Positions 29,096 through 38,865 of a DNA stretch of 64,000 nucleotides are shown piece after piece. Location: the sequence record OL770073.2; one strand, 5' to 3'. The position numbers and the translations under genes are program-made. A model generated the notes under the pieces. The model was given only the letters and a program-made list of their open reading frames with translations, did not search any database and was not told the origin of the DNA. Position 1 is the first letter of the stretch. The number at the start of each line of letters is the position of its first letter. Source of the stretch: Escherichia phage vB_EcoM-RPN226.

Positions 29096-30479
<1,384 letters not shown>

Positions 30480-31495
30480 TAATTTAGGCCTAGGTATAAG
30501 GTGACTTATACTTGTAATCTATCTAAACGGGGGACCTCTCTAGTAGACAATCCCGTGCTAAATTGTAGGACTACCCTTTAATAAATACTTCTATATAAAA
30601 AGAGGTGTTTATGAAAAGCGGAATTTATCAGATTAAAAACACTTTAAACGGTAAAGTGTATGTTGGAAGTGCTAAAGATTTTGAGAAAAGATGGAAGAGA
30701 CATTTTAAAGACCTTGAAAACGGTGTTCACTCTTCTATAAAATTTCAAAGGTCTTTTAATAAACATGGTAATGTTTTTGAATGCTCTGTACTGGAAGAAA
30801 TTCCATATGAGAAAGATTTGATTATTGAACGAGAAAATTTTTGGATTAAAGAGCTAAATTCTAAAATTAATGGATATAATATTGCTGATGCGTCTTTTGG
30901 CGATGTGCTTTCAAATCATCCATTAAAAGAAGAAATTGCTAAGAAACGAGCTGAAACTGTTAAAGCTAAGATGCTTAAGCTTGGTCCTGATGGTCGGAAA
31001 GCTCTTTATGGTAAACACGGAAGTAAAAATGGCCGATGGAATCCAGAAAACCACAAGTTTTGTAAATGCGGTGTTCGCATACCATCTTCGGCTGATACTT
31101 GTGGAAAGTGCCGAAAACGTTCAGGTGAAAATAACCCGTTCTTTAATCACAAACATTCAGAAAAAACTAAAACTAAACTATCTGAAAAGATGAAAGGCAA
31201 AAAGCCAGCTAACATCAAAAAGATTTCATGCGATGGGATTATTTTTGAATGTGCAGCCGATGCGGCTAGACATTTTGAAATTTCATCAGGATTAGTTACT
31301 TACCGTGTAAAATCTGATAAGTGGAATTGGTTCTACATAAATGCCTAACGACTATCCCTTTGGGGAGTAGGGTCAAGTGACTCGAAACGATAGACATCTT
31401 GCTTCATCAAGATGGAGATATAGTCTGATCTGTATGGTGACATGCAGCTGGATATAATTCCGGGATAAGATTAACGACCTTATCTGAACATAATG
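30480..31495 (+). mobile_element. group I self-splicing intron in td (1016 nt) carrying I-TevI
   Basis: begins TAATTTAGGCCTAGGTATAAGGTGACTTATAC...; 3' end ...GAACATAATG; exon frames join to give a 286-aa TS. Confidence 0.9.
30611..31348 (+). CDS. intron-encoded GIY-YIG homing endonuclease I-TevI
   Basis: 245 aa; [38 protein letters not shown]... with zinc-finger linker and C-terminal DNA-binding domain. Confidence 0.9.
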   Translation: MKSGIYQIKNTLNGKVYVGSAKDFEKRWKRHFKDLENGVHSSIKFQRSFNKHGNVFECSVLEEIPYEKDLIIERENFWIKELNSKINGYNIADASFGDVLSNHPLKEEIAKKRAETVKAKMLKLGPDGRKALYGKHGSKNGRWNPENHKFCKCGVRIPSSADTCGKCRKRSGENNPFFNHKHSEKTKTKLSEKMKGKKPANIKKISCDGIIFECAADAARHFEISSGLVTYRVKSDKWNWFYINA

Positions 31496-31807
31496 CTTCC
31501 ATTCAACATTGCATCATATGCTGCGTTGGCTCATATTGTAGCTAAGATGTGTAATCTTATTCCAGGAGATTTGATATTTTCTGGCGGTAATACTCATATC
31601 TATATGAATCACGTAGAACAATGTAAAGAAATTTTGCGTCGTGAACCTAAAGAGCTTTGTGAACTGGTAATAGGCGGATTGCCTTATAAATTCCGCTATC
31701 TTTCTACTAAAGAACAATTGGAATACATTCTTAAACTCAGGCCTAAAGATTTCGTTCTTAAAGGTTACGAATCACACCCTCCTATTAAAGGAAAAATGGC
31801 GGTGTAA
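31496..31807 (+). CDS. td: thymidylate synthase, exon 2
   Basis: LPFNIASYAALAHIVAKMCNLIPGDLIFSGGNTHIYMNHVEQ... in frame with exon 1 after intron removal. Confidence 0.9.
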   Translation, partial: LPFNIASYAALAHIVAKMCNLIPGDLIFSGGNTHIYMNHVEQCKEILRREPKELCELVIGGLPYKFRYLSTKEQLEYILKLRPKDFVLKGYESHPPIKGKMAV

Positions 31808-31830
31808 TTAATTATTAATTGTGAGGATAT

Positions 31831-32076
31831 ATGATTTTACGATTTAAGGATACTTCTGGTGTCGTTCTTTTTACACTTCCTAACCCAAGTGAGTTAGAAG
31901 TTCCAGGACCAAATCAGCCTATTATCATTTATGGCAAAAAATATTATACTCATAAAATGACCCGTGAGTATTTTGATAATAAAATTTCCACAGTTAAAAC
32001 TTCTTCTGATTGCTACTATGATATTACTGTTTTAACGGAACAACAATATGACGAATGTAGAACTTTAGCAGTATAA
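31831..32076 (+). CDS. hypothetical protein
   Basis: 81-aa ORF; 3' end overlaps the convergent GIY-YIG gene by 12 nt. Confidence 0.45.
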
Positions 32077-32796
32077 ATATGATTCCCAACAATCTAGAGC
32101 ACATCTTTTAGATATAAGTTTTCTGCTTATTCCGGTTTGACGCACAGCTTCTGCTATTGTTGGATATTCTACCCCATCTATACTTACTCTTAGATGGGGT
32201 TTCTTTTTACCTCTTTGTGAGTCAGAAATTCGTTTTCTAACTTCATTGGTATGTGTCTGTCCATAATATGGATTATTGATGCCTTTCATATTAAGTGCAG
32301 CGTTTCTTTCTTGGAACTTTTTGCTTATTTCTATAGCACGATCTAACCCATAGTGTTCTTCTATAGTTTTACCTTTAATATCTTTAGGTCTACCATGTTT
32401 TTGCTTAAGTTCTTCTGGTGATAATTTTGAATTATTATTTTTAATTGCATTTGAAATTTTATTAAGGATTTCTTGCTTTCTTGGGTGATGAGATAAGGTA
32501 TCCCCAAACGATGCGTCTGCTATATTATACCCATTTTCCTTTGAGTCATATTCATGTATCCAATAATTTTCACGTTCAATAATGATAGATTTTTCGTATG
32601 GAAGTTCTTCTATGATTTTACATACGAAAGCATCTTTCCCATGCTTATTATAAGAACGTTGCAGCTTTATTGAATGATGATTTCCATTATCTAAATCTTT
32701 GAAGTGTCGTTTCCATCGTTCTTCAAAATTAATTGCACTTCCTATATAGTGCTTATTGGTTTTAGTGTTTATAATAGCATATATTCCAGATTTCAT
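32065..32796 (-). CDS. free-standing GIY-YIG homing endonuclease, I-TevI paralog
   Basis: 243 aa; first ~110 residues closely parallel I-TevI ([38 protein letters not shown]...[12 protein letters not shown]); minus-strand TATAAATA plus AGGAG RBS upstream. Confidence 0.85.
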
Positions 32797-32818
32797 TATA
32801 TTCTCCTATATAAAATTA

Positions 32819-32826
32819 TATTTATA
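32819..32826 (-). promoter_or_regulatory. T4 late promoter (TATAAATA) for the antisense GIY-YIG gene
   Basis: minus strand reads CCCATATAAATATAATTTTATATAGGAGAATATA-ATG. Confidence 0.6.
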
Positions 32827-32851
32827 TGGGGTAACTTACTACAGAGGACTT

Positions 32852-34285
32852 ATGCAATTAATTAATGTTATCAAAAGTAGTGGTGTTTCTCAGAGCTTTG
32901 ACCCGCAAAAAATTATTAAAGTTTTATCTTGGGCAGCTGAAGGAACATCTGTAGATCCTTATGAATTATATGAAAATATTAAATCATATCTCCGTGATGG
33001 AATGACAACTGATGACATTCAGACTATTGTCATTAAGGCTGCTGCGAATTCTATTTCAGTTGAAGAGCCTGATTATCAATATGTAGCTGCACGCTGTTTA
33101 ATGTTCGCTCTTCGTAAGCATGTTTACGGGCAATATGAGCCCCGTTCATTTATTGACCATATTTCTTACTGTGTAAATGAAGGTAAATATGACCCTGAAC
33201 TGCTGTCAAAATATTCAGCAGAAGAAATTACATTTTTAGAATCAAAAATTAAGCACGAGCGGGATATGGAATTTACTTATTCCGGGGCGATGCAATTAAA
33301 AGAAAAATATCTCGTTAAAGATAAAACCACTGGTCAAATTTATGAAACTCCGCAGTTTGCATTTATGACTATTGGAATGGCATTGCATCAAGATGAACCT
33401 GTTGACAGATTAAAACATGTTATTCGTTTTTATGAAGCAGTATCTACTCGACAGATTTCACTGCCAACTCCTATTATGGCTGGATGTCGTACTCCAACTC
33501 GACAGTTTAGTTCATGCGTTGTTATTGAAGCAGGTGATTCGCTGAAGTCTATCAATAAGGCTTCTGCTTCAATTGTTGAGTATATTTCTAAACGAGCTGG
33601 AATTGGTATTAACGTTGGTATGATTCGTGCCGAAGGTTCTAAGATTGGCACAGGTGAAGTGCGTCATACTGGTGTTATTCCTTTTTGGAAACATTTTCAG
33701 ACTGCTGTTAAATCATGTTCACAGGGCGGAATTCGTGGCGGCGCTGCTACTGCTTATTATCCTATTTGGCATTTGGAAGTTGAAAATCTTCTCGTTTTGA
33801 AAAATAACAAAGGCGTAGAAGAAAACCGTATCCGTCATATGGATTATGGTGTTCAGCTGAATGACCTAATGATGGAACGATTCGGAAAGAACGATTACAT
33901 TACTTTGTTTAGTCCGCATGAAATGGGTGGCGAACTTTATTATTCTTATTTTAAAGACCAAGACCGCTTCCGTGAATTGTACGAAGCTGCAGAAAAAGAC
34001 CCTAATATTCGTAAAAAGCGTATTAAAGCGCGTGAACTGTTTGAACTACTCATGACTGAACGATCAGGAACAGCGAGGATTTATGTACAGTTCATTGATA
34101 ATACGAATAACTATACTCCATTTATTCGTGAAAAGGCACCTATTCGTCAGAGTAACTTGTGCTGTGAAATTGCTATTCCAACAAATGATGTGAATAGCCA
34201 ACAAACCCGTTTAATCAAAATTAAGAAGTCGGATGTAGCTAAGTTTTATGAAGTTAATCCTGGCGGTATAATTCAAAGCAAATAA
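32852..34285 (+). CDS. nrdA: ribonucleotide reductase alpha subunit, N-terminal fragment (NrdA-a)
   Basis: 477 aa from MQLINVIKSSG...; NrdA similarity through ...IRQSNLCCEIAIPTNDVNS, then 27 unrelated residues and a stop. Confidence 0.8.
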   Translation: MQLINVIKSSGVSQSFDPQKIIKVLSWAAEGTSVDPYELYENIKSYLRDGMTTDDIQTIVIKAAANSISVEEPDYQYVAARCLMFALRKHVYGQYEPRSFIDHISYCVNEGKYDPELLSKYSAEEITFLESKIKHERDMEFTYSGAMQLKEKYLVKDKTTGQIYETPQFAFMTIGMALHQDEPVDRLKHVIRFYEAVSTRQISLPTPIMAGCRTPTRQFSSCVVIEAGDSLKSINKASASIVEYISKRAGIGINVGMIRAEGSKIGTGEVRHTGVIPFWKHFQTAVKSCSQGGIRGGAATAYYPIWHLEVENLLVLKNNKGVEENRIRHMDYGVQLNDLMMERFGKNDYITLFSPHEMGGELYYSYFKDQDRFRELYEAAEKDPNIRKKRIKARELFELLMTERSGTARIYVQFIDNTNNYTPFIREKAPIRQSNLCCEIAIPTNDVNSQQTRLIKIKKSDVAKFYEVNPGGIIQSK

Positions 34286-34330
34286 AGTACACAGACCGTT
34301 AATAAATAATCCATAACAAGAGGAAAAGTT

Positions 34331-35041
34331 ATGGATTATTCTAAAATTTACAATAACCTTATTTCTAAAGCTAAGAACAGAAAATTAGATTGCTATACCG
34401 AATCACACCATATTATACCTCTGTGTATTGGTGGTTCTGATACAAAGGAAAACCTGGCAGATTTGACACCCGAAGAGCATTATATAGCTCATCAATTATT
34501 AGTAAAGATATATCCAGATAATCATAAATTGGTATTTGCCGCTAATATGATGTGTGTGTATTCTGAAGATAATATTGAACGAAAGAACACCAATAAACGC
34601 CATGGGTGGCTTAGAAGAAAATTGGCTATTTCTGTATCTGAAAATAATAAAGGCAAACCAGCTTGGAACAAAGGTATTCCGGTAACTGACGAGCATAGAG
34701 AAAAACTTCAAACAACTTGGGTATTTACTTTCCCGGACGGTCATGAAGAAATCCATAAAGGCCTAAGAGAATTTTGCGAACTACATTCACTCAATGCTTC
34801 GGCAATGTCGGCCGTATGCAAAGGCAAAAGGTCTCAACATAAAGGCTTTAAGTGTCGAAAGTTTGATAATATCTCTGAAAACGATAATCAAGAATACGTC
34901 AGTAAACCTCATCCAAAGGGATTAAAACCCCATAACTTAATTGCTGTAAAAATAAACGGTATAGAATATCAATCAATACATCGAGCATCTAAAGCTCTAG
35001 GAATATCTCGAAAAAAGGTAGAAGAATTAAATGAATATTGA
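34331..35041 (+). CDS. HNH homing endonuclease (Mob-like) inserted within nrdA
   Basis: 236 aa; HNH motif ...YTESHHIIPLCIGGSDTKENLADLTPEEHYIAHQLL; own RBS AAGAGGAAAA; AATAAATA late-promoter-like motif upstream. Confidence 0.8.
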   Translation: MDYSKIYNNLISKAKNRKLDCYTESHHIIPLCIGGSDTKENLADLTPEEHYIAHQLLVKIYPDNHKLVFAANMMCVYSEDNIERKNTNKRHGWLRRKLAISVSENNKGKPAWNKGIPVTDEHREKLQTTWVFTFPDGHEEIHKGLREFCELHSLNASAMSAVCKGKRSQHKGFKCRKFDNISENDNQEYVSKPHPKGLKPHNLIAVKINGIEYQSIHRASKALGISRKKVEELNEY

Positions 35042-36020
35042 TTATGAATTTGTAGATGAATTTTACGAAGATGATGAGTATACAACAATACAAGTTATTG
35101 AAAACAAAGGTGAAGTGGGCCTTTGTACCCTTAGCGCATTTGTGCTGGATAACTTCGATTGGCAAGACCAAGATAAAATCAACGAATTAGCAGAAGTTCA
35201 AGTTCGTGCTCTTGATAATCTTTTGGATTACCAAGGATATCCAGTTCCTGAAGCAGAAAAAGCTAAAAAGCGTCGAAACCTTGGCGTAGGTGTTACTAAC
35301 TATGCAGCTTGGCTGGCAAGTAACTTTGCTTCTTATGAAGATGCTAACGATTTAACACATGAACTATTTGAGAGATTACAGTATGGACTCATTAAAGCAT
35401 CCATTAAGCTCGCCAAAGAAAAAGGACCTTGCGAATATTATTCAGACACTCGTTGGTCTCGAGGCGAATTACCTATCGACTGGTACAATAAAAAGATTGA
35501 CCAAATCGCAGCTCCAAAATACGTTTGTGACTGGTCGTCGCTGCGGGAAGACCTTAAGCTCTTTGGCATCCGTAATAGCACATTATCAGCACTTATGCCA
35601 TGTGAGTCATCTTCCCAAGTTTCTAACAGTACAAACGGTATCGAGCCTCCACGTGGACCAGTCTCTGTTAAAGAATCAAAAGAGGGTTCCTTTAATCAAG
35701 TCGTGCCCAATATTGAGCATAACATAGACCTCTATGATTATACGTGGAAATTAGCTAAGAAAGGTAATAAACCTTATCTTACGCAGGTAGCTATTATGCT
35801 GAAATGGGTATGTCAATCAGCTTCAGCGAATACATATTATGACCCGCAGATTTTTCCAAAAGGAAAGGTTCCAATGTCTGTAATGATTGATGACATGCTA
35901 TACGGATGGTATTATGGCATTAAAAACTTCTATTATCATAATACCCGCGATGGTTCTGGTACTGATGATTATGAAATAGAAACTCCAAAAGCTGAAGATT
36001 GTTCATCCTGTAAATTATGA
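35031..36020 (+). CDS. nrdA: ribonucleotide reductase alpha subunit, C-terminal fragment (NrdA-b)
   Basis: 329 aa; own ATG and AAGG RBS inside the HNH 3' end; 26-aa acidic leader then ...GEVGLCTLSAF... to C-terminal ...CSSCKL. Confidence 0.8.
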   Translation: MNIDYEFVDEFYEDDEYTTIQVIENKGEVGLCTLSAFVLDNFDWQDQDKINELAEVQVRALDNLLDYQGYPVPEAEKAKKRRNLGVGVTNYAAWLASNFASYEDANDLTHELFERLQYGLIKASIKLAKEKGPCEYYSDTRWSRGELPIDWYNKKIDQIAAPKYVCDWSSLREDLKLFGIRNSTLSALMPCESSSQVSNSTNGIEPPRGPVSVKESKEGSFNQVVPNIEHNIDLYDYTWKLAKKGNKPYLTQVAIMLKWVCQSASANTYYDPQIFPKGKVPMSVMIDDMLYGWYYGIKNFYYHNTRDGSGTDDYEIETPKAEDCSSCKL

Positions 36021-36071
36021 TATAATTTGACTCACGGACGAGTCACTATCTATTAACTAAGCGGAAAATTT

Positions 36072-37250
36072 ATGAGCACAGTTTTTAATACAAATCCAGT
36101 TGATGTTTTAAAAGAACCTATGTTCTTCGGTTCAGGTCTTGGTATTGCGCGTTATGATATTCAACGCCATAAAGTTTTTGAAGATTTAACCGAAAAGCAA
36201 TTATCATTTTTCTGGCGTCCTGAAGAAGTAAACTTGATGATGGATGCTGCACAATTTAACAAGCTTCCTCAGTATCAGCAAGATATTTTTACTAATAACC
36301 TGAAATATCAATCACTTCTGGATAGTATCCAGGGTCGTGCACCGTCTGCTGTACTTATGTCATTAATTTCAGACCCAAGTCTTGATACATGGGTTGCTAC
36401 ATGGACTTTTAGTGAAACTATTCACAGTCGTTCATATACTCATATCATGCGAAATCTTTATACTGATCCATCGAAGGTATTTGATGAGATTGTACTAGAT
36501 GAAGCTATCATGAAACGTGCTGAATCTATCGGTCGCTATTATGATGATGTTCTGACTAAAACCCGTGAATGGGAAAATGCTAAAGAATTTACAGAACTAG
36601 CTAAAGAATCTCCTGATGCTGTTTTTCGTTTAAATCGAGCTATTAAACAAGAAGCCGAAGCTAAACGAGCACTAATGAAATCTCTTTACCTCTGCCTGCA
36701 CGTAATCAACGCATTGGAAGCTATTCGTTTTTATGTATCTTTCGCATGCACCTTTAACTTCCATAAGAACATGGAAATCATGGAAGGTAATGCCAAGATT
36801 ATGAAGTTCATTGCACGTGATGAGCAGCTTCACCTTAAAGGCACCCAATATATTATTCGTCAACTTCAACTTGGCACTGATGGTGATGAATGGGTTAAAA
36901 TCGCCCAAGAGTGTGAACAAGAAGCAGTTGATATTTTCATGGAAGTTAATCGCCAAGAAAAAGATTGGGCAGTTCATTTATTTAAAGATGGCGATGTTCC
37001 TGGATTAAATACAAATAGCATGTGGAGCTTTATTGATTACTTAACTGTATCTCGTATGAAACAGTGCGGTCTTCCATGCCCAATTACTGATGCTCCGGTT
37101 AAACATCCGTATCCTTGGATTCGTGAATATCTTAATTCTGATAATGTTCAATCCGCGCCACAAGAAGTAGAACTGTCATCTTACCTTGTAGCACAGATTG
37201 ATAATGATGTTGATGATAAAGTTATGATGAGTTTTAAAAAATATTTTTAA
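36072..37250 (+). CDS. nrdB: ribonucleotide reductase beta subunit, intronless
   Basis: 392-aa continuous ORF with R2 ferritin-like fold. Confidence 0.9.
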   Translation: MSTVFNTNPVDVLKEPMFFGSGLGIARYDIQRHKVFEDLTEKQLSFFWRPEEVNLMMDAAQFNKLPQYQQDIFTNNLKYQSLLDSIQGRAPSAVLMSLISDPSLDTWVATWTFSETIHSRSYTHIMRNLYTDPSKVFDEIVLDEAIMKRAESIGRYYDDVLTKTREWENAKEFTELAKESPDAVFRLNRAIKQEAEAKRALMKSLYLCLHVINALEAIRFYVSFACTFNFHKNMEIMEGNAKIMKFIARDEQLHLKGTQYIIRQLQLGTDGDEWVKIAQECEQEAVDIFMEVNRQEKDWAVHLFKDGDVPGLNTNSMWSFIDYLTVSRMKQCGLPCPITDAPVKHPYPWIREYLNSDNVQSAPQEVELSSYLVAQIDNDVDDKVMMSFKKYF

Positions 37251-37277
37251 GGAGTGGGCCGCAAGGCCCATTTTATT

Positions 37278-38865
<1,588 letters not shown>

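Follow-up and report, generated by a model that had tools for sequence, protein, structure and literature searches.

I-TevI is the textbook intron homing endonuclease, and its nuclease domain is used in genome-editing fusions; I-BmoI, encoded by the thyA intron of Bacillus mojavensis, is an I-TevI-like GIY-YIG enzyme that has no zinc finger and is likewise associated with thymidylate synthase. Here, we analyzed a 64,000-nucleotide stretch of Escherichia phage vB_EcoM-RPN226 (OL770073.2; the whole stretch is referred to as the window), in which a 243-amino-acid relative of I-TevI is encoded between td and nrdA. Like I-TevI, this protein consists of two domains, GIY-YIG at the N-terminus (69% identity) and a NUMOD3 helix plus helix-turn-helix at the C-terminus; it shares 45-46% identity with I-TevI over its full length, is preceded by a late promoter, and is associated with td in the genome. 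Unlike I-TevI, it is encoded by a free-standing gene on the opposite strand, has no zinc-finger linker, and falls in a separate neighbor-joining clade. By description, it also resembles I-BmoI in being zinc-less and linked to thymidylate synthase, but I-BmoI is encoded within an intron. In our view, the gene is probably the cargo of a free-standing I-TevI-family cassette, 787 bp long, that belongs to a zinc-less sister lineage and homes into a cassette-free allele. The gene is an uncharacterized I-TevI-type gene, and the kind of mobile element it represents is already well known. Public records label it "homing endonuclease", "endonuclease I-TevI" or "hypothetical protein", and our literature search found no description of an endonuclease at td/nrdA or of one displacing nrdA.1.

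The locus can also be compared with those of SegA to SegG, which are free-standing GIY-YIG genes wedged between conserved genes, present in only some T-even phages, and expected to spread by co-conversion after a double-strand break in a neighboring gene. SegF targets gene 56 and SegG targets gene 32, and several seg and mob genes use upstream promoters or overlap the upstream open reading frame (ORF) (PMC2988022); the gene described here differs in being antisense to its neighbors and in having its own late promoter. An original prediction, made from the sequence of the window, had named both I-TevI and SegA-G for comparison. The gene resembles the free-standing Seg and Mob genes of T4 in its behavior, although a tblastn search of T4 at E <= 1e-5 returned I-TevI as the single match and no seg gene.

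The endonuclease gene and its product

The endonuclease ORF is a real, intact gene. The ORF list, BLASTP, Pfam, and a PDB match agree on a free-standing GIY-YIG homing endonuclease at 32065..32796 on the minus strand (243 amino acids, stop codon included), with its ATG at 32796, as had been proposed. It lies on the strand opposite td, 257 bp beyond the td end, and its 3' end shares 12 nt with a convergent small ORF, the nrdA.2 homolog (DUF5496; 31831..32076, plus strand; Pfam E 7e-52), which encodes 81 amino acids here and 87 in T4. Reading the minus strand, we located an exact T4 late promoter consensus, TATAAATA, at 32819..32826, 30 nt 5' of the endonuclease ATG, and a Shine-Dalgarno sequence, AGGAG, at 32803..32807, 6 nt 5' of the same ATG. 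Promoter, ribosome-binding site (RBS), and 3' overlap had all been anticipated by the original prediction; its placement of the promoter inside the nrdA 5' region was wrong. Alignment with T4 puts the true nrdA ATG at 32852, the listed ORF 32756..34285 being nrdA extended in the upstream direction; the promoter thus lies within the cassette, 26 nt 5' of the nrdA start. TATAAATA occurs 12 times in the window against 9.5 expected, and one copy alone says little. An exact copy lies 30-35 nt before the ATG in seven of seven orthologs examined, from six genera, despite differing surrounding sequence, and it is this constant position, not the mere occurrence of the motif, that leads us to judge the promoter significant.

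The protein matched the window's own intron-borne I-TevI (30611..31348) with 45% identity over 242 amino acids (BLASTP, E 3e-70). Its catalytic domain (amino acids 1-98; 32503..32796, minus strand) matched the I-TevI domain structures 1mk0/1ln0 at E 4e-40, and Foldseek superposed it on them with a TM score of 0.93-0.94, a root-mean-square deviation of 1.4-1.6 Å, and 68-69% identity; the catalytic likeness to I-TevI that had been noticed at the outset is thus close indeed (69%). Pfam assigned the domain to GIY-YIG (PF01541, E 1e-15). The equivalents of I-TevI Y6, Y17, R27, H31, H40, E75, and N90 are all kept, with the conserved GIY-YIG Tyr, Tyr, Arg, His, Glu, and Asn represented by Y6, Y17, R27, H31, H40, E76, and N91. 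We infer that the protein has nuclease activity.

The C-terminal region had been described as different from that of I-TevI, with NUMOD-like repeats, a helix-turn-helix-like tail, and no zinc finger. The motifs and the missing finger were confirmed; the region is not a different one, as it aligns end to end with I-TevI. Amino acids 156-239 (32080..32331, minus strand) form a DNA-binding region of a NUMOD3 helix and a helix-turn-helix that matched the I-TevI DNA-binding domain 1i3j at E 2.8e-7 by sequence and E 4.9e-4 by fold, with approximately 30% identity. Pfam found NUMOD3 in two stretches (E 2e-6) and I-TevI_DNA-bd at E 2.3e-4 (21.4 bits, under the 27-bit curated cut-off), and 1mk0/1ln0 and 1i3j were the only significant Foldseek matches. 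For the zinc finger (PF22635), there was no Pfam match in the endonuclease, while the window's own I-TevI scored E 1.8e-17; the four cysteine positions read D/gap/R/A, and a helical NUMOD3-like segment of similar length occupies the expected place. The recognition helix differs from that of I-TevI, so the target is probably different as well. An AlphaFold model built from an alignment of 39 family members had a mean pLDDT of 81.5, with a low-confidence hinge at residues 87-100, which is what a linker would give. In a rough neighbor-joining tree of 76 family members, a zinc-less free-standing clade stood apart from the zinc-finger I-TevI clade. Compared with the ortholog of Klebsiella phage KP179 (92.1% nucleotide identity), the ratio of nonsynonymous to synonymous substitution rates (dN/dS) was 0.11 over 243 codons and 0.22 for the catalytic domain alone. 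To judge by alignment and codon substitution, the protein is a full-length, selectively maintained I-TevI homolog.

The cassette and its spread among T4-like phages

The boundaries of the cassette were defined by aligning the window with T4, the cassette-free phage HMD-9, and the carrier sutha. Homology with T4 ends after ...CAATATGACGAAT (32056) and restarts at GAGGACTTATG (32844), giving sharp junctions around a mobile cassette of 787 bp (32057..32843) that holds only the promoter, the RBS, and the endonuclease ORF; the right junction is formed by the nrdA RBS and true start codon (32844..32854, plus strand). The cassette stands in place of 300 bp of T4 (J03968 positions 360-659), comprising the last nrdA.2 codons, which the cassette rewrites, all of nrdA.1 (DUF4326), and the upstream nrdA regulatory signals. 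The signals lost are a late promoter, two stem-loops, and a -35/-10 pair, which are all those annotated upstream of the gene in the 1988 T4 nrdA record. No second nrdA.1 homolog was found elsewhere in the window. The idea that T4 has nothing at this position holds only in part: the endonuclease itself is absent from T4, but the position is occupied by the sense-strand nrdA.1. The comparison with T2 and T6 that had been suggested turned up no close match to the endonuclease in either phage; both appeared only among the weaker tblastn matches (<60% identity), those from T6 corresponding to the intron I-TevI (46%).

The gene is not peculiar to this genome; the same gene or its orthologs occupy the locus in six genera. 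Within Tequatrovirus, a megablast search with positions 31400-33400 found the cassette in 8 of 656 phage records, the others aligning as two pieces around it. These eight records represent seven phages (sutha, TB004, CJY920, N2, ECO07P5, LH2, and Ozark), in which the endonuclease is full length with 98.8-100% protein identity. Klebsiella phages of the genus Jiaodavirus, of which approximately 15 are carriers, encode full-length proteins with 88-93% identity in 18 records (tblastn), and the gene is likewise free-standing and antisense between td and nrdA; the orthologs of KP179, KpV477, and PKO111 are all 243 amino acids long. Feature names had made these Klebsiella phage genes candidates for td-intron genes, which we rejected on finding them annotated as free-standing and antisense. 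Approximately 130 other records of the Jiaodavirus group have two small ORFs at the locus, one an nrdA.1 homolog. Carriers therefore make up about 1% of Tequatrovirus and about 12% of Jiaodavirus records. Further orthologs, with 47-57% identity, occur in EcS1 (Kagamiyamavirus), phiR1-RT (Tegunavirus), AbTZA1 (Hadassahvirus), and Apostate (Lazarusvirus), all four in the same orientation, convergent with td and divergent from nrdA. A single-protein query of IMG/VR found no close relatives, and an alignment-based scan did retrieve relatives there. The distance from the endonuclease start to the annotated nrdA start is 55 bp in Tequatrovirus carriers, 53 bp in KpV477, and approximately 300 bp in KP179 and PKO111; the KP179 stretch contains a small sense-strand ORF starting MNKDITAVRGL....

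The endonuclease and nrdA.1 are alternatives at this locus in three genera: in Tequatrovirus, the window versus T4 and HMD-9; in Jiaodavirus, KP179 and KpV477 versus JD18; and in Lazarusvirus, Apostate versus Konradin, which has orf224 and nrdA.1. Comparisons of carriers with non-carriers took in 15 Tequatrovirus and 4 Jiaodavirus genomes. All eight Tequatrovirus carriers have a cassette of 787 bp with identical junctions. Mean pairwise identity among carriers was 99.0% in the cassette, 95.8% in nrdA.2, and 95.4-97.3% in the first 1.2 kb of nrdA, and the first mismatches between carrier pairs fell 15-64 bp to the left of the cassette (375 bp in one pair) and 58-178 bp to its right. Since the cassette is less diverged than its flanks, it is younger than its backgrounds. 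Between Tequatrovirus and Jiaodavirus, identity was 90-92% in the cassette, 72-74% in nrdA, and 76-78% in td; the lower divergence of the cassette both within and between genera points to mobility. As these genome comparisons show, the cassette has evidently been transferred between genera. The right junction of KpV477 is exactly that of the window (...CTACAGAGGACTTATGCAA). The donor may plausibly have been a phage like KpV477, in which case the conserved nrdA start would have supplied the right-hand homology. Like other homing genes, the element is present or absent among close relatives, has precise boundaries, and has moved laterally. The family thus offers a natural zinc-less, free-standing sister of I-TevI beside the same neighboring gene in six Straboviridae genera, sometimes alongside I-TevI, in which one can ask what the zinc finger contributes and how free-standing endonucleases and introns come together. 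The cassette also marks a recent DNA transfer between Klebsiella and E. coli T4-like phages; these results leave the field's understanding of homing endonucleases unchanged.

The cleavage target and alternative explanations

In the mechanism that we propose, the phage late RNA polymerase would start at TATAAATA (32826..32819) late in infection, on the strand opposite early and middle transcription, and would produce a short-leader mRNA bearing the AGGAG RBS. The enzyme would hold DNA through its C-terminal NUMOD3 and helix-turn-helix domain, and the tethered GIY-YIG domain would cut at a distance on a co-infecting cassette-free relative. Recombinational repair from the carrier genome would then copy the cassette in, displacing the nrdA.1 allele between nrdA.2/td and the nrdA start, and carriers would be immune as the cassette had removed or disrupted the site. 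We tentatively place the cut in the cassette-free allele itself, in the nrdA.1 region or at the nrdA junction, and not in td; this is the least certain step of the scheme. The alternation with nrdA.1 in three genera, together with the short shared tracts around the cassette, counts for such a target. Perfect blocks between the nrdA.1 regions of T4 and JD18 (24 nt, TGGGGAAATTACGTCGGTAAAGAT; 19 nt, CATGGTGATATAATAGCTC; and the nrdA RBS/start) are candidate sites only. Substitutions specific to carriers were absent from both td exons, from nrdA.2, and from the first 1.4 kb of nrdA, so immunity does not depend on a flank polymorphism common to all carriers.

Several observations weigh against this assignment. 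Two Ac42-like Acinetobacter phages in IMG/VR keep nrdA.1 beside an ortholog with 42-45% identity, so nrdA.1 cannot be the target for the whole clade; since the antisense td-adjacent endonuclease of these phages is accompanied, ahead of nrdA, by nrdA.1 and approximately 1.2 kb of other DNA, displacement of nrdA.1 is not universal in the clade either. Close relatives in the family are almost always inside or adjoining td, which suggests td as the ancestral target, and we lean that way with low confidence. A Lazarusvirus carrier has a foreign 3' third of td that starts 34 nt upstream of the equivalent of the I-TevI insertion site. Finally, free recombination of T4-like phages could yield short shared tracts without any homing.

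In a possible, though less probable, account, this enzyme cuts td at or near the conserved I-TevI-type insertion site (codon 183/184). A td intron or a resistant form of td would then protect the carriers; the cassette would spread through intronless homing, in which the td 3' end is co-converted, and ORF-less td introns would be mobilized in trans. In all 20 IMG/VR relatives that have a td match, td lies within approximately 100 bp of the endonuclease or around it; these include 12 of the 13 closest relatives, and the gene is convergent with td in five, inside td (~codon 183) in five, and just downstream on the same strand in ten. Identity with I-TevI reaches 69% in the catalytic domain but, which argues the other way, only about 30% in the DNA-binding domain. 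The td genes of Apostate, the Lazarusvirus carrier, and Konradin are identical over nt 1-629 and drop to 66% identity from nt 630 (nt 630-948), a breakpoint that sits just 5' of a CAACG motif, at the classic cleavage position. In Ozark, a diverged td allele begins at the insertion-site position.

The td intron states of the carriers bear on the same question, and every td state occurs among them. Six of the eight Tequatrovirus carriers have a td intron, and intron sequence follows the end of exon 1 in N2, CJY920, and LH2. Annotation places an I-TevI-bearing intron in sutha and LH2; the window has one too, and TB004 gave a second tblastn match consistent with I-TevI. In N2, the annotated gap between the td exons is only 248 bp, an intron without an ORF alongside the cassette, whereas Ozark and ECO07P5 carry the cassette without a td intron. 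The td of the intronless ECO07P5 is hard to reconcile with a resistant variant: its 121 bp across the td site match ECO07P4, a51, and DCP2 at 100% identity, and the eight close cassette matches (tblastn) include none of these three phages. Likewise, the td regions of Jiaodavirus carriers and non-carriers are separated by no more than 1 nt in 101, against 3-4% between one carrier and another, and in Tequatrovirus the 565 bp from the td site to the cassette have not been co-inherited with the cassette. N2 recalls the trans-homing of MobE and I-TevIII (PMC2790892), in which a free-standing endonuclease adjoins a gene with an endonuclease-less group I intron. For homing of this type or of the F-CphI type, the family-wide adjacency to td and the Lazarusvirus breakpoint count in favor, and the ECO07P5 and Jiaodavirus td comparisons argue against a resistant td allele linked to the carriers. 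F-CphI reportedly takes part in collaborative homing with the cyanophage psbA intron, a case ascribed to Zeng, Bonocora, and Shub in 2009.

A further and somewhat doubtful suggestion is that I-TevI has its surviving free-living sister, or its ancestor type, in this td-adjacent lineage of zinc-less, free-standing enzymes, which may still cut td at or near the intron site. If so, all stages of a route to a mobile intron that is said to have been proposed by Bonocora and Shub would coexist in T4-like phages: a free-standing endonuclease beside an intronless td (Ozark, ECO07P5, and Jiaodavirus), a free-standing endonuclease with an ORF-less td intron driven in trans (N2), an endonuclease within the intron (T4), and, as a fourth form, both kinds together, as in this window.

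That the protein is no longer a mobile nuclease, and is kept as a DNA-binding regulator (a late td/nrdA repressor) or as an exclusion nuclease against unrelated competitors, is unlikely. I-TevI itself is also an autorepressor (PMC2790892), an imperfect palindrome of 10 nt extends over the promoter and RBS of the endonuclease gene, and some regulatory rewiring must exist, since the cassette removes all T4 nrdA-proximal promoters. Set against this, the catalytic residues are all kept with a catalytic-domain dN/dS of 0.22, and the sporadic spread of the gene, about 1% and 12% of records in the two genera, is that of a selfish element and not of a fixed regulator. Nor did the promoter region of the endonuclease gene resemble the T4 allele in an operator-like way above chance: the best I-TevI-style operator candidate in the comparison with T4 td-nrdA matched at 14 of 20 positions, a score reached by 59 of 60 shuffles. 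It is very improbable that the ORF is an inactive or decaying remnant or arose as a chance reading frame: many phage homing endonuclease genes do degenerate, as T4 I-TevIII has according to its annotation, but this one is full length at near-identity in the seven Tequatrovirus phages and at 88-93% in the Jiaodavirus carriers, with a dN/dS of 0.11, intact motifs, a conserved promoter and RBS, and a well-predicted fold (pLDDT 81.5).

Expression, nrdA regulation, and neighboring genes

Because the endonuclease gene is antisense to the gene 32-frd-td-nrdA unit, it cannot be expressed by early or middle read-through. Apart from its own late promoter, no expression signal is evident, and on that basis we infer late-only expression. 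Late-only expression is known for T4 intron endonucleases (PMC2790892), and the promoter found here is consistent with it. An RBS-occluding hairpin of the kind that controls I-TevI was sought; the local hairpin (-6.4 kcal/mol, z = -0.3 against shuffles) is no better than chance and has no consistent equivalent in the other genera, and late timing would therefore come from orientation and not from such a hairpin. The original prediction expected antisense transcripts into the nrdA promoter region. This is contradicted by the layout, as transcription of the endonuclease gene heads toward nrdA.2 and td, away from nrdA, and the T4 nrdA promoters are deleted in this allele.

With those promoters gone, nrdA of the carriers must rely on upstream promoters or on signals within the cassette. 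A pattern scan gave two plus-strand candidates. One, near the left cassette boundary (32072..32079), is another exact copy of TATAAATA, directed toward nrdA and a candidate nrdA late promoter; approximately 0.06 such copies per cassette strand are expected by chance, and it is conserved in KP179 and KpV477, but within coding sequence. It would also yield RNA antisense to the endonuclease gene. The other is a MotA-box-like candidate, TGCTTAT-N13-TATAAT (32750..32775), with a perfect TATAAT, 77 nt upstream of the nrdA ATG; the window holds 28 such patterns against 15 expected, so about half could be chance. These two putative sites may stand in for the deleted T4 promoters. In positions 31300-33100, sigma-70-type promoter-like sites were no commoner than in shuffles, and terminator-like sites numbered 3 against 0.9 expected. 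The locus is thus a system in which to ask how a phage tolerates the loss of all T4-annotated nrdA-proximal promoters before an important nucleotide-metabolism gene.

On the td side, the expectation that one genome carries two related nucleases was borne out, as the window also has a genuine I-TevI at 30611..31348. The endonuclease described here is not I-TevI proper: it is not within a td group I intron, lying on the opposite strand between nrdA.2 and nrdA. An Rfam scan of positions 29500-38500 gave a single match, a sub-threshold Intron_gpI (35.5 bits, gathering threshold 50) in the td intron at 31217-31447. Among other Tequatrovirus genomes, td introns of approximately 250-315 bp without an I-TevI ORF were observed in HMD-9, N2, 236Ecol005PP, PYps55T, and Shinka. 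When td exon 1 of the window (29931..30479) was compared with 14 other Tequatroviruses, identity was only 78-85%, as opposed to approximately 95-97% for nrdA.2 and nrdA. Across these phages, exon 1 falls into several sharply distinct allelic classes that are independent of cassette and intron state, a pattern that indicates strong mosaicism beside the I-TevI site.

Downstream of the cassette, nrdA of the window is split into two ORFs, 32852..34285 and 35031..36020, parted by an HNH ORF (34331..35041) that is MobE-like, with 45% identity to the T4 MobE N-terminus. The first piece encodes NrdA residues 1-449 plus a 28-amino-acid tail and the second a 26-amino-acid head plus residues 452-754, so that the break falls approximately 10 residues past the active-site NLCCEI motif. 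There was no Rfam match to a group I intron at the split. The arrangement is common to 34 phage records, and nrdA of sutha is intact. The split gene resembles the genes-in-pieces nrdA of Aeromonas phage Aeh1 (PMC2988022).

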